A DNA stretch of 64,000 bases from assembly GCF_000002865.3 (NCBI RefSeq), contig NW_001865048.1, positions 770,098-834,097 of the forward strand, written 5' to 3'. The translations under genes were made by a program, and so were the position numbers. The DNA comes from Monosiga brevicollis MX1 (lineage: Eukaryota). Position 1 is the stretch's first letter, and every line of letters starts with the position of its first letter. The notes below the pieces were generated by a model that was given only the letters and a program-made list of their open reading frames with translations, made no database searches and had not been told where the DNA came from. Shown piece after piece: positions 41,444-57,660 of this stretch.

Positions 41444-43592
41444 ATGTTGTCTCAACGAAGCTTCTTGTGTTTGGTGCTGGCCACCGCGCTCTGCGCGGCA
41501 TCGAGCGACAAAGACAGTGATGCAGAAGTCAATTCGCCCATCTTTTTGGTCAACGGCCGCATCACCAACCAAGTGGCTCGCGTGCTTGTCGATTGCCGCC
41601 ACACCGATCCCGAGCTTCGTAAGAGCTGCTCGGCACTCGAGTACACCCTTGATGCTCCTGATCACCACACGGAGGTGGTACACTTGACTGACATGCCCAT
41701 GATCCTCAAGATCAATCGTCTCAACACTTGCCACCAGTACACCTTGACCGTGCAAGTCAAGGACCAGCCTGAGACAGCCATCACGAGCCACTTTGCTACC
41801 CCGTGCCCAGACACGGACCACCGCCGCATGATCGTGGTCTCGTGTGATCGTTTTGCCGATGACCCTAACGACGATGCTTTTCTTGAGGCCTTTGCGGATC
41901 GGGCCGGCCCCTTTGATGTCATGTTTCACATGGGAGACCAAATCTATGCGGACAAATTGCTCAAACTGGAAGCCCAGACGATTGATGAGGTACGGGTGCC
42001 CTGAGTGACCCTGAGTGTTGAGATTTTTCTCGAGTTAAAGTAGCGACCTAGTATCCTCACCGCAATTCCGCGCTTGCATTGCGCGCACACAGGCAATTCC
42101 CCTGTATCGCGACCTCTATCGAGAGGCCTGGTCGCGGCCTGTGATGCGCCGCTTCCTTTCCACTGGTTCCCATATCATGGTTCCCGATGATCATGACGTG
42201 ATGAACGCGTTAAGGTAAGACGGTGTGGCATCGCCTGTGCCGTCTGTCCAGTCTGTGTCTGGCTCTCAAATCTTTTACCGACCAACGTCCTAGCCCTGAA
42301 AACGTCCTCGCGAGCCGCGACGACCCGTATTGGGTGGCCGGCCAGCGTACCACTTATGAGTTCCAGCGCGCCCTATGGGTTGGTGAGTTTCCTTGACACG
42401 ACAATAGTCTCCTTCCACAGCCCGCGCCTTGCCTTGCCTTGACGGCTCTACCTCATCTGGTTGGGATGCTTCAGATGTTTTGGAGCTCAGCAAGCTGTCG
42501 GCTGATAACATTGGCAAGGAAGATGCACACCCCGGCGTCCATGCGTTCATGCGAGTTGGCAGTACGGCTGTGGCCGCTCTTGATACCCGGTGTGTTTTCT
42601 TGACGCCTCACTGTCAGGCACAAAGCTGCTTCTTGCTCTCCACTCTTTGTCTGTGTATGTGTGTGTGCATGTCGCAGCTGAGTTTGCGCTGATCTCATCA
42701 GGCCCGTCTTGTGTCCTTTGTCGTTTTGAAATCGCGGCCTGGGTCAGGTTTTACCGCAGTTATGCCTCGCCAAAGGCGCCCTATGAGCTGCTGGGCGAGA
42801 AGCAGACGAAATCCTTCCTGACACACTTGCATCGTTGGGTCGAAGATACAAATGTCAACTCCATCGTTATCCTGACGGGCCTGCCCCTCATGTGGCCATC
42901 TGAAATGCTCTCTCATGTAGCCTTTGCCATTGAAGGTTCGTTTTTCCCTTGACATGTTCCCCACCGCTCCTTGGTTGAGCCGTCGCAAATTCCTTTTTGA
43001 CCTCACTTGATGACACCGTATAGGTGATAAGTATCCCATGCATCCCACCCATCGTGAGAATCTGATTACGATTCTTGACGCCCTCCACGAGGCGCAGCGG
43101 GTCAAGGACGTCATTCTCATCGGGGGCGACGTCCACGTCTATTCGGAAATGCAACTGTGCCGCTCTGATGATGGCGTGCAAACAGGCTGTCTCACCTCGC
43201 TCACGTCCTCAGGCCTTACGCGCAGCGCCTCAATCATCAGCTCAGCCAAGCTCATGCTCTTTGACTCAGTCCTGTACTGGCTGCAACCGGCATTCCATTA
43301 CTTTTCCAGTGACGGCGTGCATCACCGCTGGGTCGGTCGCTTTCAACAGTTTTCAGTTACGGACAACGCCGTCATTCTCGACCTGAATGCCTCTGGCACA
43401 GGCCGTGAGCACCATGTTGTGCGCCCCTTTCTGCGCCCCCTCGCCTTTGGAGACCAGGTTCGCAAGCTTGTGTTCTTTGACATCAGTTTTCCTCTGTTGG
43501 CACTGCTTCTTCTGGCACTTGCCGCCAAGCTCGTTGGTATGCTCGCGGCCTGCCGATGCTGGGGGGCTTCTCGAAAGGTCAAGTCGGAATAG
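41444..43592 (+). CDS. phoD: PhoD-like alkaline phosphatase/phosphodiesterase with signal peptide and C-terminal membrane anchor; multi-exon
   Basis: MFHMGDQIYAD, PDDHDV, LDTR, LIGGDVH motifs; N-terminal signal; C-terminal hydrophobic helix then RKVKSE*. Confidence 0.88.
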
Positions 43593-44115
43593 ACAAGTGT
43601 ACACTGAGAGGTGTTGGCCTTTCCAAACAAGCAAACAAACACGAAAACACAAAAAACAAAAACAAAATGACACCTGAAAGAAAATTGAGACCACTTAAGC
43701 AATGCACGAAATTGTTTCATTTCAAGAATACATCAAATATATGCGCGAGGAAAGAATGGAAGACATGGCGTGATATCGGCTGAAATGAATTTCTGGTCAC
43801 GGTGCATCTGTGATGCAGGACACAACCCTTTTGCGAGCTGCAGATACTGTACAAGTTCCAAAATAAGAACACGCTTTGGTTCAGTTTGACAAGCTGGGCC
43901 GACTGTTATAAGCATCGAGAGACGCAGCGTGCTTTGAATATCGGTATAATATGAACGAGGCCACGATTTACCGTGCCACTAGCATGAGGTCGAGGCACAT
44001 CGTTTCGAGGTGGATGAATGATGATGGATGGGAGTTGAGACCACTCTCGCGAGAAATACCAAATCGTGGCATCATGGCAAACGGGGAAACAAAAGGGGTC
44101 ATGATGATGTGGTGC

Positions 44116-47100
44116 TTATGCCTCATTGCCCGACGCCTCCAATAGCTTTGCATGAATTCCGAGCGAGTGAGGGCGGGAGTTTTATGAGAACAGAGCATGA
44201 CAAGATAAGCCCAACAATTATCCCAGGCTTTTCTGTTTGTTCCGGCAAGAACGAGGCCTTACCAGCAGCTCAAGCTCCTTCAGCACTCGAATCCGCAAAT
44301 CCACATCGCGCACATTCATGGACAACAGGTCATCGTCATCAAGATCCAATAAATCAACACCTGCGTTGCGCCATCGAACGTGAGATGCATTGATTGCTTT
44401 AATGGGCATTGACGCTAGATTCAAAAAGCTGCAAAATAGAAGCAGGCTGTCCCACAGCAAAACTTACCATTGATGCCATGAACGAAAGCACGCTCAGCCA
44501 TGGCATCGAGCTCCACAGTCTCAAACCAAGAGGCCACCATTGCTGGATCCCACAACGCGATTGATTCAGCCGTTAGGCGTGAATCAAAAGGCATGAAGGG
44601 TAAACCCACGTGTACAGCGTCATGCTGCGGCGCATAAACAGTTGCGCCTTCCAACGAGCTTGTCTTTTGCATGGGCGGTGGCGGGCGCGGTGGAGCCACC
44701 TTTGGACTCCCTGGCTTGGCCTTGGCTGCCTTGCCAGCACGCTGATGCTCACTCTCCAACGTTAGCGCGCGTGCTTCGCACGTCAAAGCCTCAAGTGCCT
44801 GTGCCGTGGTCATGCCCAAAGACACCGACTGCGTCTTCTTGCCCTTGGCCCCTTGTGCACCCGTGGCAGGGCGACTAGGCACCCTCTTGGACTCTGAGTC
44901 GATCTCACGCTCATCCTCCTCGGGCACAACATCAATGTATTCACCATGTCTGGCCAACACTTCGAGCTCCGCTTGCAATTCATCTCGTGTGGCATGCAAA
45001 TGCAGAATTTGCTCCTCCACCTGATAAACAGTCAAAGGGATATGCCAAGGTGTAAGCACTGAGTCCAGCTCGTTCGTCTGCCTCTTCCAACCTGCACCTT
45101 CCCGCAAACCAGCAGCATCTGCCTTTTCTTTTCAAATCAAGTCTGCTGTACGTGTTTCCAAGCAACGCTAGCAAACCAAAATATCCCCGTCCTCGACACG
45201 ACACTTACGCGACTCAGGGCGCTGCGAATGCGGTCCAGATGGGTAGCTGCCGAAGTTTGCGACATGGTCGTACCTATGGTTGTCGTTTCCCCCCCATATC
45301 GCAGCGTGAGCAACAAGACAAGCATGGCAGGGAGTGCAGTCAGTCGCCAACTAGGTTTGCTTTGCACTCTCCCTTCTCTCAATCTTGATGTCCAAACACA
45401 GATTGAGTTAACATGATGCTTCCTCATCTTCCCCTTTCCCACAAGGAATACACTGCAAACGTACCGGACATTGGCAGATCACTCAAGTCTAGGTTGTATA
45501 GCGTCTCCTCCGTATCGATGTTGCGCCCAATAGATCGGCGCAGAGAAGACTGGCGCGACAAGTTGGCGGGATCTACAATGGTCACATCACTGCTGGAGCT
45601 GGCATTGGACATGGCCGCAAACCCGGCACGTCGGGTTTGCGGCGATTGCGGCAGAGGCATGGCCATGCCAATTGAGGGTTTGCGACTGAGTGGACTGCCC
45701 AGCGCTGACTGCTGGGCCACCCGGGCCTCATGAGCCTCTCGGGTAATGAAGCGGTTCTGCATCGACTCCATTTCTCCCAACATGGCAGCTCCAAGCCAAG
45801 GCAAAAACACGCGGTCGTGCTGTGGATCAATCTTCAAAGGCGGTCGGCCGGGCATAAGCTGCATCAACTCGTACTCGAGGCGCTCGGCAAAGTTGGGCAT
45901 CAGCGTTGTGCCTCCACTCAGCACAATGTTGGACCAAAGCAGATCCTGAACAGAGGCTGGACACGCGTTGAGACACTCGGCCACCAGCATGGGAATGGTC
46001 TCACGCTGCTCGCTTGGGCCACGTGCCGGGTTGATCTCTGCAAGGTGCGGAAAGCCAACGTCCGAATTGAAGAGGGGTTCGACGCAGCTAAACCGCTCTG
46101 GCCCAAGGACAACCTCGCCGTCTCCATCTGGCATGACATAGACCTCTTGGAGGGCGGTGCTTGTGTTGCATGACTGCATGTCCTCCCGATAGTCCATGGA
46201 CACAAAACTGAGGTTGTCCTTGATGTCACGCAACAAGACCTGAGTTTTGGGCCCACCGTACCGCTCACGGGTGACGCGCGTAAATGCTGGTGCCTGCGCT
46301 TGCAGAAAGAAACCCAACAGCTGCGTCACCGTGTCGCCGGCCAGCTCTGAGGCACGGGCACAGCTCAACAGCGGCTCGGGTACCTCGCTGCTGAGATCAC
46401 CTCGAACCACAGGTACAACCTGGGTGTAGGTATCGCCCACGTGTACAACAAGCGCACAGCGCCGGCCTGAGCCCAGACAGGAGAGGTAGGCCTGGTCAGC
46501 AAACAACACACTCTGCACATTCACCTTTTGCATGGTGAAGAGTTTTTCGGCGATCATATTGCGCTGGCGCATCAATCGATGCGTCGTGCCCACAAGTCGA
46601 TCAACCACGGCCACGCGGCACAGAGTGTCCTCGTGTAGAAGCTCCAAAAGAGTGCGCTCCAGCAAAAGGGCTACCCCATCCCAATCGGCCAAGCTTCCCG
46701 TTGCATCGCGCTGGCGCAAAGGGTAGGAAATGCGAAGCACACTAGACAACTCGGGGGGATAGACGGCCTCCAACACATCATAGCCCAAAGGCAAACGAAT
46801 GTAGTCAAAGCCTTCCTCCCACCCACTCGTGTTGCCGTCGACGTTCAAGGGCGGTAGCTCGGGGCTGCTATAGCTGCCCGACACAGAGATGGTGCGACCC
46901 ACAGGACTGTGCGCATTAACCAGCATAGGGCTACCTTGAGAGACAGTACCGGAGCCGGGCACAGTGAGATTTGGCGCCTCTGACTGCAGAGCAGTGTGAA
47001 TGCCAGCTTTGTCGTCCTGTTCGGTGGCCACCACTCCAGCAGCGGGCGAAGCACCGGCGCTGTGCTTGGACCGGGACGGCTCATGCCGGGCCTGAGGGTG

Positions 47101-50100
47101 CGGCAATGATGTCGTGGCCCCGCCGTCGTGCCCAAGAGCATTGTCATGGGGTTTCCCCTTGCTTTTGCCTGGGCGCCGTGGGTTGGCCTGTCGCACGCCC
47201 ACGTTGGTCGATTCCTCATCGGAGCTGGAAGAGTCGTGCTCCCAGTCAGCATCACCCGTGGCCACGCCCACAGAGAGAGGGTGAAGCGGCGGTGACACGG
47301 GCCGTGCGGCCTGCGCACTGCGGGCTAAAACGTCGCGCGAATGGGGGCTTAGGCCTTTTGGCAACCCGGCCGGCAGCACGAGGGCCACGTCCTGGCCCGA
47401 GGGCTGGGCCGGTGTCATGACGCGCGAGTCGCTTGGCGGCAAGAAATCACCCAGCAAACTTGACGTGACAATGTCTGGAAACTCGTCGCCTAAACCAAAG
47501 TCGCAAGCCATGAATAAGAAACTCAAGTCTCGCCCACCACTCCATTTCCCACATCCTACACCACCTTCACTATCTCGACTGATGCCAGAAACTCAAGTAT
47601 GAACACAGCAGCGAAGATCAAAGCAACACACCGGCAAGGCCAAGCCGCAAGTTGATGGCGCCGGCATCAATGACAATTGTGAGTACCGTTCCAGGCTCAG
47701 CTGTGACCCGTGCTGTCATTGGCGTAGCCGGGGGTAAGGCGGCCATTTCGTTCACATCCTCTTGAAATCCGTACTTGCTCTGACTGCGCTGGCGCTCAGC
47801 GCGAGGGTCAAAGTCTTCGTCATCAGCGGAAAAATGAGAGCGAAGCGAGCCAGGGCTGGCCAAGCGCAATGGGTCATCATCCCCAAACCCAAAGGCAGCC
47901 TCTGAAGCTGGAAGCCACTGAGAATCCTGACTTGAGACACGGCTAGGCTGGAGCACGTGTGGGGGCAAGGAGGTGCCCATGCCCTTGCTTGGGCCACCAA
48001 GTTCTGCCCCGTCAGAAGGCATGGCGCCCTCCAACGCCGTTACCACAGCCGGAAGCGGTGCTTCAGGCGAGAGCGGGCTACCTTCTCCAACAATTTCACC
48101 AATGGCTTCAGGAATATTCAAGTCATAGGGGGAAAAGTTGAGCTCGGGAATGGACGGACGCGAGCTCTTTTCAGACAAGGCCTGGGGTGTAGCCAGACGG
48201 CTTTCATCCGACGACTCGTCCTCACGAATGGTCTGGGGCGAGAGCATGTCCAACCCAGCCTGCGGCTCCGGGGTCACCTCTGGTAGCTCATGGTGAACGT
48301 CAAAAATAGGCGTGCGTACTGAGTCGTCCAGCGAAGGCTCGGGATGCTGGCTGTCGTCCGTCTGTGACTCAAGCCAGTTTCCAATGCCCACGGCGGCCCC
48401 TGCGCCGCCTTCTTTAATTTGCAGCGGTGGTGGCAATACCCTGTGGATGGACCAGTGCAAGCAAGCACGGTCGTGGAACATTAAAAACTTGGAGGTGTGC
48501 GGCACAGGCTGACCAAGACACCCAAACAGAACGCGTCTTTGATGCGACGTACGCTTTTCGCTTTGATGAATAGCGTAGAGAACCATGAAGCGTCACCGGC
48601 CGCCCTGTGCTGCCTGAGGGCGATGGATCGGGAGGGCGGGCTATTTGAAGCTTTTTGATCGCCTAAGCAGCAGTAACCCGATCGATAAGGAGGTGACTCG
48701 AGTACAAGTGCCAGAGCTCTCCACGGTGGCTTTGTCTTGCTTCGCCCATCAGCAAAAAAACATTTGTACGCACCGAATGCAGGTCAAGACTGTTGGCTAG
48801 CTGGGCGGGAGGCTGATTGCGCACAGTTTGCCCATCACAGGAGAAAATAACATCGCCCGGTCTCAAGCCTATAAAAATGGGTGGGAGAGGCGGAGCAAGG
48901 CAAAGGTGAGAATGCGAGAGCGTCGGAACCATTCTGCAAGACTTCTGTGGCATCCACGAGTGGGTGCACAGGCTGTTGATGACACGGGACCTCAAAGACG
49001 AAACAAGCGTACCAGAGCGCTCAGCATCGGATGTACCGGCAACTGCCACGACATAAAGACCACCATCCAGTGTTGCATCCTCATCCTAAGCACGCCAGGC
49101 CCGCGTTGACCGGGGACCAGCGTTAGCTTTCAATGACGCACACATTTATCTCTGTTTTACCAAGGTGGGAACACGTACAAGGATGTGATCTGGTAGTGGG
49201 CCGAGACGCAGACCAAAGGAGTAGGTCAAGCCGGGTACCACGTTATATTTGACAGTGATGGTCAAACGCGAATACCGATTGGCGGCATTGACCGAGGCGA
49301 AGCGGCTTCGACGCAAAATGGGCGAGGCGGAAACGGAGATGCTGCGGCTAAAGTCAGAGAGGGTGGACGGAGGGCGCCGACTGGTGGGCGAGGTGGTAGC
49401 AGAGGCGCTGCGAGCTTGATCTGCAGCCCCGGTGGTTGCGTCTCCCATAGACAAGCCCATAGGAGAAGGAGGCTCTGTCCCGTCCATCGCGTCGTCTGTA
49501 GAGGTGGCGAGCTCAAGCTCAGGATCCAGGGCTAAAGAAGGAATACTCTGCCGCTGTCGGGCAGACCGCCGTTCTGCACCACGTACGTGACCACACACAC
49601 AAGCCAGTGTCAATCAAGGCAAAGACCGTTAATATTTGCGCCGGTGCTTGCCATCAAAGGGGTCGCTGGAGCAGGGCCTTACGAAGCGTGCGATTGATTG
49701 CGGCCGTTTCCATGGCCATGCGGTGCGCAGGAGATTCGTGGTGGCCCTTCATTTTTTCAGCTCGAGCCACCAGGAGTGAGTCGTCGCTCTTGTGGCTTAT
49801 CAATGGGCTAGGCGGAACGAGCTTTGTGGCATCCTGTACACAAAAAACCCAATCGGAAAACAATCATTAAAGACCTGGACGATCATTGTACACTTGGTCC
49901 AGGAGTGCAGAATGTCTCAGGCAGCAGCACTGACCGCAGGCTCATCATCCACGTGAGCCGCTTCAAACAGCGGCGGGTCACGGCCCAGTCTTTCTTGTTG
50001 CACGATGCATCTTTGAAAATCTGGCATCAGGTGCCCAGTGGCGAAGAAAGAACGGAAAGAGGCGAGCAATGAGTGCGCGATTTTTTTTTTTTTTTTCCCA

Positions 50101-53100
50101 AAATCCATTGTATCTCACGATGGACCGGTCGCAACTAGAACTGACCATTCCACCATTGTTCTTTCATCTTGCCGTTCATGGCGCGCAGGCGATACATGGA
50201 TTGATTTTTCTGCAAAGGTTGGGGTGGTTAGGGAGCACCGTCACGCGTGGCCTAAGACCAGATGCACACAGCATACCTTGTGGTACAGAGTATTGACGAG
50301 GATAAGGCTTCGCTTGTCGGTGGCGTCGGTGCGAACAATGGTACCCCTGAGTGGGAGCACGGGGTCCATGGCGGCCTTGACAATGCTTTTGCCTGTTCGT
50401 GTCAAAGTAGGGCAGCACAATGTGAAAGAGGGGTGAGAAAAGTGCCTCATGGGACTTATTCGCTCAGATGCCAGGCCTATGAACGTCCGGGACAGTCCAA
50501 AACAGCATAAGTGTGTTGCTTTGCAGACCTGGGCATTTGAGAATCAGCGCTGCCTCCTTTTGCTGGGTGAAGATGGCTACATCGGAGAAAAGGATCACAT
50601 ACACCTCTACGACAAGCACGGCCTTGCTTGTGAGTGCAAGCAGCATGCGCAAGCGTGCAGCATCGCAGTTGATTGTGCTAGGCATGTCCGGCAACACCGA
50701 CCTTTGGTTTGCGATTCGTCGGTAACAACGTCAAGGGTGCCTTCTCGCACCATGGTGCGTTCTTCATTGACAATGAGGTTCAACTTGCTGTAATGCGCCA
50801 AGTGCTTGTGATGCATGCAATGTGAGAAGTCTAGCTTGTCTTGGATCTGATGCAGCCGCTCCAAGTCCTGCTGTTCTTTAATCTTCTTGTCAATCACCTG
50901 CGGGTAGACGAAGTTGTGAGTGCGGTGGGCGGGGCAGAACTACAACCAGCACAGACGCTGTTTCAAGCCCAAGCCACGTACTTCCATCATGTATTTGCTT
51001 TGTTGCAGACACTGCGACAGTAACTGTCGTTCTTCGTGCTGCTGTTTCGTCTGGTAAGTAAGAATGTGCAATGGAAGCAGGAAGAAGTGAGTATCACTGT
51101 TCGGGTGGGGCCATGGGGCATGCTGGATCGTTCGGGCAGCACGGTGTCGTGTGCATACCCGAGTATTCTTCAGGATGCCTTCAATCAACAGCGGATACTT
51201 GGAAAGGCGTTGCATAACCTAAGCACCATTTAGGAACACGGTGCAAGTAGTGAAAGCGCAATCCCGCTCAAAGCGCTCAAGTGCGACAAGTCTCTTGCAA
51301 AGACCACATACCTTGGCAATGAAGTCAGGAAACTTGAGACGCGCACATACGGGCTCAGCATGAGCAGCATTAATGACGCGTTCAAAGTGGGGGTCTTGAC
51401 GCATGCTGCAGCCAGTTGCGAAAAGCAGCATCGGATGGGTGAGACAGACGGCGAGATACGAAGCGACGGTGAAGGTAGCCCGCGGCATGCGTACAGAGCT
51501 TGAAAGGCACGAGTTGATGAAGATTGATTGGCGCAAAAATCGCCGTAGGTATTGCAGTCGGCATCAAAAGTTTCCTAAATTAGCAATTAAAAGAAAACAA
51601 ACAAGCAAAAGCCAAACGCCGCCACGAGCAAGGCAGAGGCGAAGACGTGAGTGTCCAGATCTGGGCAGGAGAGGGTGTTTTGACAAGGGCACACAGTAGT
51701 GAATGGCTTGGTGTAACACCCACCGTCAGGAAAAGCTGTTGAAAATTTTCGCCCATGTTGGGAAAAGAGCGTGCATGGTATTCGTGCTGCAGATCCACCA
51801 GCCGTTGACAAAAAGGCCCGTTTAGAGCGATAATGTCGTCCAAATTGGCAAACAAGCCATCCAGTTGCTCCCTACGCCACAAAAGAGTCAATCGCATCAG
51901 CCATTGAGTGCTCATGTATCCCACGACGGAAAGAATATACACGGGCGTCACCAAGATCACAGGCGATTGTACTGTGATGCTGGGGAGCAGAGCCAATGGT
52001 GCTGGGGAGCAGAGCCAACGCACTGAGACAAGACGCCAGAGTGGCTCAAGCGTAGTTGAAAATTGACGCGAAGAATGATGAGGTTGCGAATAAACGCCTT
52101 CTCCGTCTGCAAGGTTTTACACATCGAACCGAAATAACAGGATTCGAATTGCAAATGGTCGTGAAAATCACAGGCAGTCAAGTCGATCGGCAGTGTGAGC
52201 AAAAAACAAAAAAAAAACAGATAGGATGAAATCAAAATGTTCAGATCATGCTTTACAAACTGTGGCTCACCTGGATGAATTCGTAGATCATATCCTGACG
52301 GCGCACGGCGCGACTGTCCATGCCCTTTAGCTCCTAGAACATGCGAATAGAGGTCGGTGTAAAAACATTAATCATGCTCGAGCATGCCTGCGTGCAAGAT
52401 GATGGTAGAGCATTGGCTGGCAGATTGAACGCTGACCTCGGAGGGCACTGTGTCACCCCAGGTGGCGGGCTCAAGAGTGGGGTCTATACAAAGCACAGCG
52501 ACAAGTTAACGTTTGGTGAGACATCAAGGGCGTGTCCACGCCTCCCGTTCAAATGCCTTGCACGGCTTGAGAGGGCAAGCTAACCTGGTGGCAGTTGGGA
52601 CAAATCGGTCCAGGCATCAGGGTCTGTGTCCCAGCGCACGTCTAAGGAGAAAGCAGGGGTAGTGAGAGTGAGCGTGCGCGTGTTGACAAACAACAGATGG
52701 TGTTGGGTGAGCCGGACAGGCAACCGCAGTGTTTGCATACGGAAAACAGAGGGGCGGGGAGGAACGAACCATGGTAGGCACGGGCGGCACGTTTAGCCGT
52801 CTGCTTTCTCGCGGCAAAAAAAAACAAAAGAAAAAAAAACAAAAGAAAAAAAAAAGAAGAAAAAAAAAAAAAAGCAAGTTGAGTGAACCAATAGCAAAGG
52901 GCTGGCAGCAGATGCGTTGCGGCGAGCACCGCGGGCAGCAATGCAAACCTTTGCATCGGGAACGGACGCGGAACTGGCTTCTGAGCTCTGGCTACCACGA
53001 GCCTGATCGTGACGATCGAGAAGGCTCATGTTATCATAAACGACGCCAGTGTTGAGAGATTCCCGTCGGCGTCGGCGGTTGGACTAAAACACAATGATGC

Positions 53101-53900
53101 GTCGTCAGCAAAGTGTTAAACATTTCTTGTACATCCAGGATATACGGGCGCCATTTTCGGGCAGAGAGCGGGCACAAGATGTGGACCAAAAAAAGGGTCA
53201 ACTACAATGAGCGAACCTTGAAGTAACTCCGGTTGGTGTCAAGGGCCATGGCGCTGATGGCAGAGGCTGAGTACGAGCGGAGATTGGGTGAGAGGCCTGA
53301 TCGCTTCTTCACCCAGGAGAGTAGAGAGGGGTGCGAGCAAGTAAAAGCAAAAACGCTTTCTGTTCTGCTGCTGTACGGGGCAGAGGAGGTCAGAGCACGA
53401 TACGGATTGACTTACGAGCTTTGCTTTTGTCATCCTTGCCGCCCTTGGTCTTCTTGCCGCGAAACTTATCCCAAAGGCCTGCCAAAAAAAAAAAAAAAAG
53501 ATGAATCAAGGAAGGTATCGATAATCATCGCGAGGCGAGGTGTAACCAGCATGCGGTGACGAGGGGAGGACACGGTGCGTACGTGGCTTGCTATCATCGG
53601 AGCCAAGGCTCTATGGAGTACGGGTATTAAAAGCAGGGGATAACCGGCCATAAATATAGGGGCGAATAAAGCTCGCTGAGCTGGGCACGGTTTGATTGGC
53701 CGGATGGGTGAAGGTGGTCTGCGTACCGCGGCCGAGGCGGATGTCTTGGCATCAGCCATATTGCGGCTGAGATGACGGCTATTGGGCGAGGACGCCGCAA
53801 AGGTGGCTCAGGTGCATTGCTGCTCTCCAGCGACACATCATCGTGAGGCGTGGCAGTCTGCGCGACTGGCAAGCGCGCGGGGGAGTCATGCACTACCTAG
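44116..53900 (-). CDS. RhoGEF (DH-PH) - PDZ - actin-like domain - coiled coil - SAM fusion protein; many exons, both ends approximate
   Basis: DH RQDMIYEFIQ|TEKAFIRNL, LFANLDDI, MQRLSKYPLLIEGILK. PH VREGTL..VILFSD. PDZ SFGLRL..G|LRPGDVIFSCDG. Actin VIDAGAINLRLGLAG|DEFP, GPERFSCVEPLF, NIVLSGGTTLMPNFAERL, WLGAAML. SAM WDPAMVASWF..ING|VDLLDL. Junctions from PH to SAM are phase-compatible. Confidence 0.8.
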
Positions 53901-55082
53901 GCTCCGACAAGCGGGCAATGGAGTTGGCGTGCACGAAGGTGTAAGGGCGGCTGAACACGGAGCAGCAGACGACTGGTCAGGGTTGGACGGGAGTGCTCAG
54001 TGCCCCGATGCATGCATCTTTGCCTCGCACCGCGAGCTGCGCCCCCCGTCCCCTGGACCTGGAGAACATGGTGAGGCCGTGAGTCCAGCGTGCCCATGGG
54101 GGCGGCCGACGAACGCTGGCATCAGTAGAAAGGGACAGACCTGAGGCTCTAGTTGGAGAGCAGAGCCGTCGCGCAGACGGTGCAGGCAAGACGAAATTGA
54201 CCTTGTGCTGCAGAGACTGGGTGGGCAGCACAGATGGGTTGGATGTGAGTGATGATGCACATGGAAGCAAGTCAAAAAGAGGGCACGGGTCACGATGCTT
54301 GGAGCTGAATACGCGGCAACTGACGATTGATGGATTGCTTTTCAAGGCTCGCAAGAAAGCCGTGTCTGGGGTGGGAATTCAAGACAACGCGGCGAGGTGA
54401 GTGAGTCAGCGTTTGGGCAGGACAAGGCAGACACTTTGGGTTGGGAGCTTGCTGGCTCAACCGCCAGAGAGATTCGTTTGTGCGTGTGCGTGCGTGTGTG
54501 AGTGCAGCTGCACCCCAGCGGCTGGCTCGATCCAACACAAAGCGCACGAGCTGCAAGCCCGGGCAGAGCCAAAGGGGCATGCGCGCTCGCGGTCGACAGG
54601 TGTAGGTTTGAGGTGGTGTGGAGTAGCGTGTTCGAAGCGAGTTCACCATCGATCACCAGCCACCCACACAAAACCAGACGAGTTGAATCGGCCACTTCCC
54701 GCACCCCCCCTACGCCCTCTACGACTGGCCTGGCCTGACCTGACCTGACCGACAGACGAACCAGCCAGCGGCAGGTCGACCCACACACACACACACACAC
54801 ACTCACACACTCACTCACACACTCACACTTACGAGGAATAGTACGAGTAGCAAGGCGTTCACTGAAACGAACAGTGACCGAGATCAAGAGAGAGAGAGCG
54901 AGAGAGAGCGAGAGAGAGCGAGAGAGAGCCGCGCGAGCTTCTTAACGTTTCAACTGTCACACACACACTACATATGACTACACACTACGAGTTCCTAAGG
55001 ATGTACCCCTTACGATGATGAACTGCTTTTTTTGAGGAGAAGAACAAAAGAACTACGTTTGGTGGCTCTTGCTCGTGTTTTG

Positions 55083-55116
<34 letters not shown>

Positions 55117-55142
55117 ATGCTGCACAACATTGCCAGTGCTTC

Positions 55143-55183
<41 letters not shown>

Positions 55184-55727
55184 TGCTGGCACCACTTTTG
55201 GTGATGGCTCTCACATGCTTCTTCATGCAGGGAGGTGCTCTGGATGGAAGGGTATGATCACGATGGCGGTCATGCCTGCAATCTCGCATCTTGACTGTAG
55301 ACGGGAAACACCTTGCGTCGCGCCTTTGGCTCTCACCGATCGACCAGTTGCATGCAGGCAAAATCATACTCATCCACGAGTGGCAAAATGTGCAGCTGTG
55401 CGAGAGCTGAGGAGGAGCGAGTCTGACCAGAGCCATGTGCAGCAAGCCAATTATTGTGTGTTGTGGGTGCTTGGGCTGGGCTCTTTTTTTTAAAACGTTG
55501 TGACTTGCGCGATTATATTTTTGAAACCCCATCGAGCGTGGTGTGACTGTAAAGTGCATCGTTGCGCGCCGCCAAATGGCGTCAGCAGCGTGAACGAATT
55601 CGTCCGCTCGTACGGACGCAAACAAACATGGCCAACCAGGCAAAGCCTCAGAGCTCAGACCAACCAAGAAAGGATGGTCCAACCACGACCGAGAACCGAA
55701 TATTGGTGCATGGAAACTTTGAACGAC

Positions 55728-55811
55728 CGTCGCAAAACGAGCCGTTGATACGAGCTCGAAGTGCTGCGATCGTCGCAAAACGAGCCGTTGATACGAGCTC
55801 AAAGTGCTGCG
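55728..55811. repeat. Tandem duplication of a 43-bp unit, intergenic
   Basis: cgtcgcaaaacgagccgttgatacgagctc(g/a)aagtgctgcg occurs twice, at 55728 and 55771. Confidence 0.95.
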
Positions 55812-56227
55812 GCTAACAACAAGGAAAAGAGAAGACTGCCTTTAGGGGGTAATGGCTAGCTCTACTCCATGATGTTGGATTGCCACGGATCATGTACATA
55901 TCAAAGGGACGACGAGACATGCCACATGGTAGTTCAAGTTCCCCCGCCTTTCCAAAGCCACGTCTAAATCTGAAGATACAATCAATTTTTAAAGCTCAAG
56001 AAAAAAGTTGGCTAATTCCAGACCTGACCTCACTGCTGTTATGACTGTAAAAGCGTGATGATATGGGTAGGGCCCAGGCACAACCAAGACAGGATTGGGG
56101 GTTGACATGGCAGCACAGCTGCACTCCTCATTGCCACCAAGGCGGTGGCGAATGACGATGGCGGCGATTAGAAGCCCACGGCAGACAACGCAAGCGGGGG
56201 GTAAGCTCAGAAGGCACGGCCGTCTGC

Positions 56228-57598
56228 TCAAGGATTAGAGGCGGCCCGCATGTCCGGGGTAAAACCGATGCCGTGGCACTCAATCACGCGCGCCTCTGGA
56301 AAGTGCGGGTCCTCGGCTGATGAGACCGAAATCTTGGCTCCTGTGGAATTCCCATATCAAAAGTGCATTGCAAGCCATGAACACCAAATCAAGGCACGAT
56401 TGACTTTTTTTACCCCTCCCACTTGTTCTGAGCCCTCCCGAGTCAAGGGCACACAATGCTTTTCTACTGACCAGAGAGCTCACGCGCCAAGTGAATTGCC
56501 GTCTCCGTATGCAAGCTCAATGGACCCGTCCTGACCCGTGATGTGCCCGACTACAGCAGGACACACGCACACACGCACACGCACACAATGTTGAGACAAG
56601 GGCAGAGCGGATGCAGAACATGTGGACGAGATTCCTCGGGCATCACTGCGGCCACCAGGCAGCCTTCAAAGCCTTCAACTTCGTACCGCCAGGGCCATGA
56701 GAATGATGATCTGGTCAGCTGCGTATTCGTCCACGCAGCCACCTGCGTTGATGCCCGCCAACAGTTCCTGGGCTGCAGCGCGGCCCACCTTCTCTGCCGG
56801 TACACCTCGCTTACCCAAAGCCGAGCCGCCCAGTCGACATCCCGTTGAGGTCTCAGCCACCAGCACAATGCCCGTGCCAGCACCCACGGCATTGGCGGCG
56901 CGCTGCTCCTCAATGTTCACCTCCAGGTCTGGGTATTGTGCACGTAGGGCACGGCGCGCTGCAGCGGCCATTTCGCGAGCCACACGGTCGGGAATCGGTC
57001 CTGCCACATAGCTCAGGCCTGTAACTCGCGCCACCTCACCCCGCTCCAGCAACTCCATCCCGTGCAGGCGCGGCACAGGCGGCACAGACAGATGCACCTC
57101 GCCTTGCCCTTTGGGAAAGAATCCACGTGTGACCACACGGCAATCGCAATGGCCCCCAAACTTTTCGAGCAAAGGAACAAACACACGCTCAAAGTAATCA
57201 ACCTGCGGGGCCATCTCCGCGTTGGTGCCTCCTCGCAGCTGCAGCTCGACCTGTTCGGGGGCAAACAGCGCCAATGGCAATGCCGACTGGATCAGCAGGC
57301 AGGTTGAACCCGCAGTTTGCACGTCAGCAGCAAAGGTGCCACCTGCAAGTTGGTTTGGATAGATCTCGACCCGGTCCGAGCCGACGGTGGCATTGCGCAA
57401 CCGGCCTCGACACATGTTTGCCTGCAAGACGAGACCGGTCTTGTGCTGTGCCTTGAGGCCCGGCTTGGATCGCTTGGCGCGGATGTGCTCAATGACGACG
57501 TTCTTGTTCAACAAGCAAGCATAAGCCGAGGTGTTGCGCAGAATCTGGCCACCGCCCTCCATGATCGAGCCATCGATCACAATCTTGCTGTCACTCAT
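56228..57598 (-). CDS. RTCA: RNA 3'-terminal phosphate cyclase, 3 exons
   Basis: IDGSIMEGGGQILR, RAKRSKPGLKAQH, LRGGTNA, RGFFPKGQG, DEYAADQ. Exon 2 SGTSRVRTGPLSLHTETA (catalytic His). Exon 3 VIECHGIG. Confidence 0.96.
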
Positions 57599-57660
57599 CT
57601 TGCCGGTCCGTGTCCGTGGTAATCTTCATGGACTACTACTGCTTGAAAATGCGGCATCCC

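Follow-up and report, generated by a model that had tools for sequence, protein, structure and literature searches.

Within a 64,000-nucleotide stretch of the genome of Monosiga brevicollis MX1 (contig NW_001865048.1, positions 770,098 to 834,097 of the forward strand; hereafter the window, to which all positions refer), a single minus-strand gene encodes a Rho guanine nucleotide exchange factor (RhoGEF) fused to what is modelled as a complete, highly diverged actin-fold domain. Spliced RNA contigs, together with full-length orthologous transcripts from three other choanoflagellate genera, make it almost certain that one gene gives rise to one mRNA of about 6.7 kb and to one protein of about 2004 amino acids, and that this single-gene fusion is real and conserved. 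Along the protein, the DH and PH domains of the exchange factor are followed by a PDZ domain, a disordered linker, the actin-fold domain, a conserved motif and a helix, a Pro-rich tract and, finally, a SAM domain (Table 1).

The window is eukaryotic in character, with about 55% G+C and short introns. An open frame of 2 kb on the minus strand (45424-47592) matches the Pfam Actin family with an E-value of 9e-45, and weak matches to RhoGEF, PH_16, PDZ and SAM occur in adjoining minus-strand frames when these are searched singly with Pfam. Four public sequencing runs, denoted X1, X3, X4 and X8, were compared with positions 43000-52810 of the window. In X4, a single spliced contig of 6663 nucleotides extends from 43884 to past 52802; its joints are of the GT..AG type, 15 of the 26 being listed directly, and where joints are unlisted the positions in the contig record equal the exon lengths exactly. 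For example, the distance from the linker exon to the piece at 49178-49573 is 278 nucleotides, that is 110+95+73. In X3, from the same study as X4, these joints recur on shorter contigs. X8, an RNA-seq metatranscriptome from another study, is 95-99% alike and contains the four 3'-most joints, and X1, possibly the source from which the window derives, carries the stretch unspliced, in one piece, with zero joints. In the assembled exon model all introns begin with GT and end in AG, and no internal stop interrupts the 2004 codons. The 26 exons from 52800 to 44116, which specify a stop-free product of 1891 amino acids, agree with the X4 joints and record positions. The 5' end is predicted to comprise five exons upstream of 52800 and an ATG at 53759, preceded by an in-frame stop 16 codons upstream; these exons fit the sequence, the deposited protein and the remaining approximately 732 nucleotides of the X4 contig. 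The contigs cannot fix the starts or ends of transcripts.

A preliminary description of this DNA, made from the letters alone, had placed all of these domains in one frame, and this is borne out by the spliced contigs and the orthologous transcripts. The five in-frame junctions that it quoted proved to be genuine GT..AG splice junctions supported by RNA contigs, with intron coordinates that were either exact or one to two nucleotides off. Joints are seen in the RNA contigs for the introns at 48773-48663 (LHS/AIKK), 47631-47490 (LGLAG/DEFP), 45208-45021 (ALSR/VEEQ) and 44467-44361 (ING/VDLL), and the intron at 48552-48441 (KRKA/VLPPP) is located by loose ends of X3 contigs at 48440 and 48552 and by the arithmetic of the X4 record. 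The region 48700-47700, where a stop or poly(A) site, or a division into separate transcripts, had been considered, contains neither stop, break nor separate contig as judged from the RNA contigs and the reading frame. Moreover, the X4 contig is unbroken over 47631-48439, within the 809-nucleotide linker exon, on which the actin fold also begins with its first strands (…TIVIDAGAINLRLGLAG). Since introns have been removed between them, the PDZ, linker and actin parts are truly joined in RNA, which is a stronger argument than plain contiguity. The stop codon lies where it had been placed earlier. The proposed 5' end at 52330 had to be abandoned: the Met near 52320 lies inside the coding region, and a further eight coding exons lead upstream to the predicted start codon at 53759.

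The fusion is already present in a public, unnamed gene model. A search with the actin exon led to a 100% identical deposited protein of Monosiga brevicollis MX1, MONBRDRAFT_25782 (P0001; 1954 amino acids), which is named 'uncharacterized protein' and carries precomputed RhoGEF, PH_16 and Actin domains. It differs from our assembled model at six places. Its first approximately 102 residues (MKKHVRAITKSG...CVCVCV...) constitute a false N-terminus, drawn from 55053-55841 on the minus strand and from 54782-55179, where microsatellites of the (CA)n, (AC)n and (AG)n types abound, and lying far upstream of the RNA-supported start, and they look like a gene-prediction artefact. At a NAGNAG acceptor (52800-52803, minus strand), the deposited model takes the upstream AG, thereby gaining one Gln, whereas X3 and X4 take the downstream AG. 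Further, a 14-residue retained intron lies within the DH domain, two stretches of 51 and 89 amino acids have been wrongly skipped, the latter in the linker between PDZ and actin, and the C-terminus runs into an intron, which truncates the SAM domain. The deposited model therefore needs correction, particularly with regard to the false N-terminus and the truncated SAM domain.

The actin part lies well above its Pfam threshold: Actin (PF00022) scores 167.5 bits on the deposited sequence, relative to a cut-off of 27. An AlphaFold2 model, built on a 64-row alignment, has a core of 312 residues with pLDDT >=90, and Foldseek comparisons of this model with actins yield target-normalised TM values of 0.82-0.87. 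With VIA, 353 of 370 residues were aligned to beta-actin at Z 42.1 and a root-mean-square deviation of 2.2 A, and the best 50 matches listed were all actin-containing entries. The top VIA matches were mostly actins in the filament state and were tied within less than one Z unit, and no inference is therefore drawn on conformation. When the sequence was searched against the PDB, the best 60 matches listed were all conventional actins (E about 1e-28), and by sequence matches the domain scores closer to actin than to any solved Arp, despite an identity to canonical actin of 98/368, or 27%. On the combined basis of the AlphaFold2 core, the Foldseek and VIA comparisons and the PDB sequence matches, the modelled domain is a complete four-subdomain actin fold, highly diverged, in agreement with the preliminary description.

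The linker that precedes the actin fold is poorly conserved among orthologues. Within its otherwise unconserved sequence, (Y/F)GF motifs recur, as FGFGDDD and YGFQED in Monosiga (47880-47760, minus strand), YGFG in Choanoeca, FGFQD and FGFA in S. infusionum and YGFD in a further family member, P0009.

This architecture recurs in other choanoflagellates. An exhaustive search with the actin core through 1.84 billion representative sequences yielded 4949 matches at E <=0.001 and only 15 at E <=1e-30, of which 14 form a distinct group and one is an ordinary actin; the bulk of actins score about 100 bits. One further family member was added by a profile search, and only two long relatives were retrieved by a word-indexed search with a single actin exon. 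Complete transcript open reading frames with the order RhoGEF-PH_16-PDZ-Actin-SAM, each marked 'type:complete', are available for Choanoeca perplexa (P0002, 1837 amino acids), Mylnosiga fluctuans (P0007, 1554 amino acids) and Salpingoeca infusionum (P0173, 1776 amino acids). The sequences of P0008 and P0009 are limited by their contigs to the end of the PDZ domain and the actin domain, with P0008 also including the helix and the start of SAM. In Salpingoeca rosetta, a protein of 1647 amino acids named 'actin' (P0003, EGD74515 / XP_004992772) contains PDZ, Actin and SAM only, and a 463-residue S. rosetta protein, EGD74514, is listed as 'ARHGEF11' in Table S3 of Fort and Blangy 2017 (PMC5499878). 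EGD74514 directly precedes EGD74515 in accession order, an adjacency that is read from the consecutive numbers only, and the S. rosetta gene has therefore probably been annotated as two; if so, these models also need correction, being one gene split in two with the second half named 'actin'. Within its actin domain, P0003 (XP_004992772.1) contains a stretch of about 90 residues twice over without any difference (SYKTRVIVDDIKQQ...AANIV, twice), which is either an artefact of assembly or gene modelling or a recent exon duplication.

A tree of actin domains was constructed from 136 matches, of which 48 were excluded for a domain length outside 330-520 amino acids, and short family fragments were left out. 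The resulting 97 domains comprised 88 unnamed actin-family matches, the canonical-actin duplicates P0039 and P0056, and seven family members. These seven fall together as a clade (support 1.0) that sits by itself on a long stem, and within it Monosiga is paired with Choanoeca, and S. rosetta is paired with S. infusionum. Their identity to canonical actin is 26-31%, as against 36-98% for the other members of the tree. Other long multidomain proteins with an actin domain were also encountered, combining CRAL-TRIO with actin, or actin with VWA and a Sec23/24 trunk (P0073, P0146, P0174, P0175; P0021, P0044). Among the former, P0174 and P0175 are from teleosts, Channa striata and Toxotes jaculatrix. 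These proteins are either real fusions or merged gene models.

The N-terminal part of the protein begins with 168 residues of basic, low-complexity sequence, followed by a clear DH domain (PF00621, 110.5 bits on P0001, where the cut-off is 27.6, over profile positions 2-176 of 180; 80.7-109.3 bits in orthologues) and a PH domain of the PH_16 type. For the Choanoeca orthologue, the entire DH-PH tandem can be aligned to solved structures of ARHGEF11, ARHGEF1 and ARHGEF12 (E 2e-31 to 9e-28) and then to AKAP13. In a database search covering proteins of 630-2000 amino acids, a range outside which the 463-residue EGD74514 falls, the best matches beyond the family are animal ARHGEF11/12 proteins, at 28-31% identity. 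A Trp-containing extension of the DH domain, with the Trp 19 residues before the RQ[ED] start of DH, has the same spacing in animal ARHGEF11/12. As judged from these similarities, the DH-PH tandem is a choanoflagellate member of the ARHGEF1/11/12 group, the RGS-RhoGEF branch of the Lbc-type Dbl GEFs, and most likely activates a RhoA-like GTPase. Consistent with this assignment, Table S3 of Fort and Blangy 2017 (PMC5499878) lists XP_001746250, the 1954-residue M. brevicollis protein, as 'ARHGEF11'; the same table includes M. brevicollis Rho1-3, Rac and Cdc42, and the accessible parts of the main text make no mention of an actin domain.

Likeness to the animal proteins is thus greatest in the DH-PH tandem, with its PH_16-type PH domain, for which ARHGEF11, ARHGEF1 and ARHGEF12 are the top matches among both structures and database entries. 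Animal ARHGEF11 (PDZ-RhoGEF) and ARHGEF12 (LARG) additionally have the Trp-containing extension at this spacing, and a single PDZ domain, to which a PDZ-like domain corresponds in M. brevicollis. The differences are considerable. No RGS-like domain (PF09128 or PF00615) was matched at E <=0.01 in P0001, P0002 or P0173, whereas the animal ARHGEF11/12 matches carry PF09128, so that the M. brevicollis protein differs from ARHGEF1/11/12 in the region preceding DH. Moreover, the PDZ domain of animal ARHGEF11/12 opens the protein, ahead of RGS and DH, whereas it lies C-terminal to PH in all four full-length choanoflagellate proteins, and animal ARHGEF proteins, at about 28-31% identity, offer no counterpart to the actin fold, helix and SAM domain. 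The PDZ domain of M. brevicollis itself falls below Pfam thresholds (PDZ 18.9 relative to 23.2 bits; PDZ_6 18.4 relative to 27), and the homologous segments pass in C. perplexa (PDZ 27.3), in P0009 (34.2 and 36.3) and in S. infusionum (PDZ_6 28.0).

Beyond the actin fold, a disordered stretch leads to a conserved (Y/F)xxDLxxL motif. The helix of about 40 residues that follows is conserved in six of the seven members, the sequence of P0009 breaking off, and a second AlphaFold2 model places it at construct residues 706-745 with pLDDT 78-93 in its centre, values which, coming from a monomer model, speak neither for nor against packing on the actin fold. For the SAM domain, the middle exon alone reaches 15.4 bits with SAM_2 (cut-off 20.5; E 0.021); once spliced, the M. 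brevicollis domain is identical at 53 of 67 positions to the corresponding segment of C. perplexa, which scores 28.0 bits with SAM_2, relative to the same cut-off, and SAM scores of 36.0 and 25.7 were obtained for M. fluctuans and S. infusionum, respectively.

In order to compare individual residues, the seven family members were aligned to one canonical actin. We take S14, G15, D154, G158 and H161 to be the ATP-clamp and catalytic residues of actin. All of them are replaced: S14 by A or T (6/7), G15 by I, V, T or S (7/7), D154 by H or Y (7/7), G158 by T, S or A (7/7) and H161 by Q, Y or T (7/7). In addition, K18 is R in all seven, and K336 is lost in five. The barbed-end groove is altered in a similarly consistent manner, with Y143 replaced by L and T148 by R in every member, M355 by R, K or H in six, and Y169 lost in all. 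Other positions are kept, including D11 and Q137 (each 6/7), G13, G20, G156 and K213; the adenine motif LSGGTT is exact in four of the seven, G301-G302-T303 is kept in four to six, and D157 is D or E in six. The PDG turn and the DIK(E/D) motif are also kept, and subdomains 3 and 4 are the best conserved. Two segments vary greatly in length. The one aligned to actin residues 33-69 contains 246 residues in Monosiga and 337 in S. rosetta but only 34-35 in the Mylnosiga and P0008 proteins, and the plug is represented by anything from 9 to 102 residues across the family.

These replacements, together with the variable D-loop and plug insertions, lead us to read the domain as a pseudo-actin, one that probably no longer hydrolyses ATP as actin does. 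The variability of the insertions also argues against actin-like polymerisation and suggests that the D-loop and plug contacts of F-actin are not relied upon; docking through the barbed-end face may still be compatible with it. With respect to selection, 12 of the 15 changed codons in the X8 environmental variant are synonymous, including all eight within the actin fold, and the three replacements lie in linkers, although the sample is small. The same variant shows eight differences within 132 nucleotides of the 3' untranslated region (43974-44105), compared with 16 in the approximately 1.4 kb of coding sequence covered.

To our knowledge, the actin fold almost always occurs in proteins that stand alone, and RhoGEFs as a rule reach actin only via Rho and its effectors. 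Relative to conventional actin, the fusion domain retains the four-subdomain fold and the LSGGTT, DIK, Q137 and G156 motifs, and it differs in being only 27% identical, in being embedded in a protein of 2004 residues, in its D-loop insert of about 210 residues, additional residues around the W-loop and changed residues of the groove, and in the replacement of S14, G15, D154, G158, H161 and K336. The Arp4, Arp5 and Arp8 subunits of chromatin remodellers are non-polymerising scaffolds with large insertions, and the choanoflagellate domain resembles them in its diverged actin fold, its surface-loop insertions and its possible use as a binding module, a likeness in possible working mode. As far as we know, Arps are free-standing and form ancient, eukaryote-wide classes, whereas the choanoflagellate domain lies in cis with a GEF and was found only in choanoflagellate-type sequences. 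The statement in the preliminary description that actins and Arps nearly always stand alone is broadly right but has an exception in Dictyostelium filactin, in which, according to the accessible part of the source, the actin domain makes up the C-terminal part of a far larger protein with several domains (PMC2441452). Filactin therefore shares with the M. brevicollis protein the fusion of an actin domain within a large multidomain protein; as far as that part of the source describes it, it differs in having another N-terminal part, without GEF, PDZ or SAM, the M. brevicollis actin domain moreover being 27% identical to actin.

The reading that we favour, and consider somewhat more probable than the sum of its competitors, is that of a RhoA-type GEF equipped with a non-polymerising pseudo-actin as an anchoring or regulating module. 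On this reading the actin-fold domain arose from an actin-family gene, and vertical descent has kept it together with the remainder of the protein from a time no later than the last common ancestor that Monosiga shares with Choanoeca, Mylnosiga and both Salpingoeca species. The DH-PH tandem, in the N-terminal third, would activate a RhoA-like GTPase, and the C-terminal two thirds would act as a device for localisation and regulation: the PDZ domain could tether the protein to the C-terminus of a partner, the helix and SAM domain could multimerise it, and the pseudo-actin, non-polymerising and probably non-hydrolysing, could serve as a binding or regulatory platform that places or gates the GEF. 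The data directly show how the gene is built, that the transcript is continuous, which domains are present, that they are conserved, which residues are replaced and what fold is predicted, whereas RhoA specificity, the absence of ATPase activity and of polymerisation, the role as a scaffold and the oligomerisation are inferred.

Several observations weigh against parts of this scheme. RhoA specificity is predicted from a similarity at about 30% identity; the PDZ and SAM domains score below the Pfam cut-offs when M. brevicollis is taken by itself; and the roles of individual actin residues are presumed to be those of the actin literature. Furthermore, conservation within the family is highest in a stretch (FADQAYLSCLGSGRRCALVVHVGD.YTQVVPV) that runs along the nucleotide cleft and hinge, and D11, G13, Q137, G156, K213 and LSGGTT are largely retained. 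As a consequence of this conservation, the cleft may still accommodate a nucleotide or some other ligand. At the level of the gene, the S. rosetta annotation has two models at the locus and, given that contigs do not reveal where transcripts begin, a further, shorter isoform with the actin and SAM parts may arise from an internal promoter.

One competing explanation, which develops the actin mimic of the preliminary description, is that the domain keeps actin-like contacts with conventional actin: it would dock on or cap filament ends, co-assemble or, when multimerised through the helix and SAM and assisted by the Pro-rich tract, seed filaments, so that Rho activation would be tied to the ends. 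The complete four-subdomain fold superposes on actin at Z 42, the closest solved sequence relatives, all of the best 60 listed, are conventional actins at E about 1e-28, the best conserved parts are subdomains 3 and 4 with the PDG turn and DIK(E/D), and a Pro-rich tract and multimerising elements lie downstream. Nevertheless, we regard it as rather unlikely, given an identity to actin of just 26-31%, D-loop and plug insertions that vary within the family from none to more than 300 residues, and groove residues that have been replaced in a conserved fashion (Y143L and T148R in all seven, a basic residue at M355 in six, Y169 lost in all). Nor do we expect the version in which the mimic is functional within a RhoA-type GEF, with units that are multimerised through the helix and SAM and flanked by the Pro-rich tract binding filament ends, monomers or actin-binding proteins and perhaps templating filaments; this we judge to be unlikely. 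If the mimic were real, a Rho-activating enzyme would directly read or seed the actin cytoskeleton, and a feedback loop between F-actin and Rho would be contained in one protein in the closest living relatives of animals. A switch mechanism, in which a remodelled cleft of the actin fold takes up ATP, ADP or another small ligand and the GEF or its partners are gated according to whether the fold is open or closed, would account for the family's strongest conservation being around the cleft (D11, G13, Q137, G156, D157, K213 and G301-G302-T303). It appears quite improbable, however, in that the phosphate-loop glycines G15 and G158 carry side chains in all seven members and S14, D154, H161 and K336 are replaced.

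A different kind of objection concerns the gene itself, namely that RhoGEF-PDZ and actin-SAM are mainly separate proteins and that the fused contig reflects read-through or an assembly join. It draws on the S. rosetta entries, in which the 463-residue 'ARHGEF11' (EGD74514) is followed by the next accession, the 1647-residue 'actin' (EGD74515), and on the fact that contigs cannot prove a single molecule. Against it, the parts are linked through removed introns with a frame open over 2004 codons, neither stop nor break occurs between PDZ and actin, the actin fold starts, with its first strands, on the linker exon, and complete single open reading frames with the same order are present in three other genera. 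We consider separate products to be highly improbable.

Table 1. Features of the RhoGEF-actin gene of M. brevicollis; positions are those of the window
Feature	Position	Strand	Basis or remarks
Coding region, one gene	44116-53759	-	31 exons, about 2004 amino acids; predicted ATG 53759-53757, TAA 44118-44116
DH (RhoGEF) domain, residues 169-357, 7 exons	50982-52303	-	Pfam RhoGEF
PH domain, PH_16 (Lbc/RGS-RhoGEF) type, residues 396-509	50019-50783	-	Pfam PH_16, 64.5 bits on P0001
PDZ-like domain, residues 687-784, 4 exons	48636-49277	-	below the Pfam cut-off here, passes in orthologues
Disordered linker, acidic, Ser-/Pro-rich, residues 785-1062	47690-48635	-	mostly on the 809-nucleotide exon 48440-47632
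Actin-fold domain, residues 1063-1676	45706-47689	-	split by intron 47631-47490 right after the LGLAG strand
Disordered insertion of about 210 residues at the D-loop (subdomain 2)	46822-47457	-	pLDDT <50 at model residues 44-69 and 83-245
Motif LYNLDLSDLP, form (Y/F)xxDLxxL	45472-45501	-	after the actin fold; aligns in 6/7, lacking in P0008 at that position
Helix of about 40 residues, putative coiled coil, residues 1764-1804	44943-45253	-	crosses intron 45208-45021
Pro-rich tract VAPPRPPPPM	44670-44699	-	from the translation; looser Pro-rich tracts at similar places in orthologues
SAM domain, residues 1931-1997, three exons	44140-44564	-	both introns confirmed in X3, X4 and X8
3' untranslated region, approximate extent	43779-44115	-	RNA contigs X3, X4 and X8 reach 43779, 43884 and 43774

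On the downstream side of the gene, a neighbouring transcript at 43022-43637 is represented by a separate RNA contig (X4 record 14) with a depth of 137, compared with 54 for the GEF contig. A 192-residue frame at 43014-43592 on the plus strand has no Pfam match. Upstream, a 316-residue frame at 56675-57625 on the minus strand matches RNA 3'-terminal phosphate cyclase (RTC 225 bits, RTC_insert 107 bits) and is a separate gene.

The sequence, its Pfam matches and the 'ARHGEF11' listing are already public, and it is the design of the fusion that is apparently undescribed in print. Searches of open full texts, as distinct from their supplements, found no description of a RhoGEF-actin fusion, of this actin domain or of the family accessions, and figure S3 of Fort and Blangy 2017, which presents domain architectures, may depict the actin domain. 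Since fused actin domains are known elsewhere, as the accessible part of the filactin source indicates (PMC2441452), the protein does not constitute a new category.

The occurrence of an actin fold in cis with an ARHGEF11-type GEF, a PDZ domain and a SAM domain over several choanoflagellate genera implies that the arrangement is under selection and is no accident of annotation. The actin-filled collar and apical contractility of choanoflagellates are central to feeding and to multicellular behaviour, and S. rosetta is genetically tractable. Should the domain be a pseudo-actin scaffold, it would represent a new use of the actin fold, beyond filaments and chromatin remodellers. Should it still be in contact with actin, it would provide a direct physical link from the state of the filament to Rho activation in the sister group of animals.

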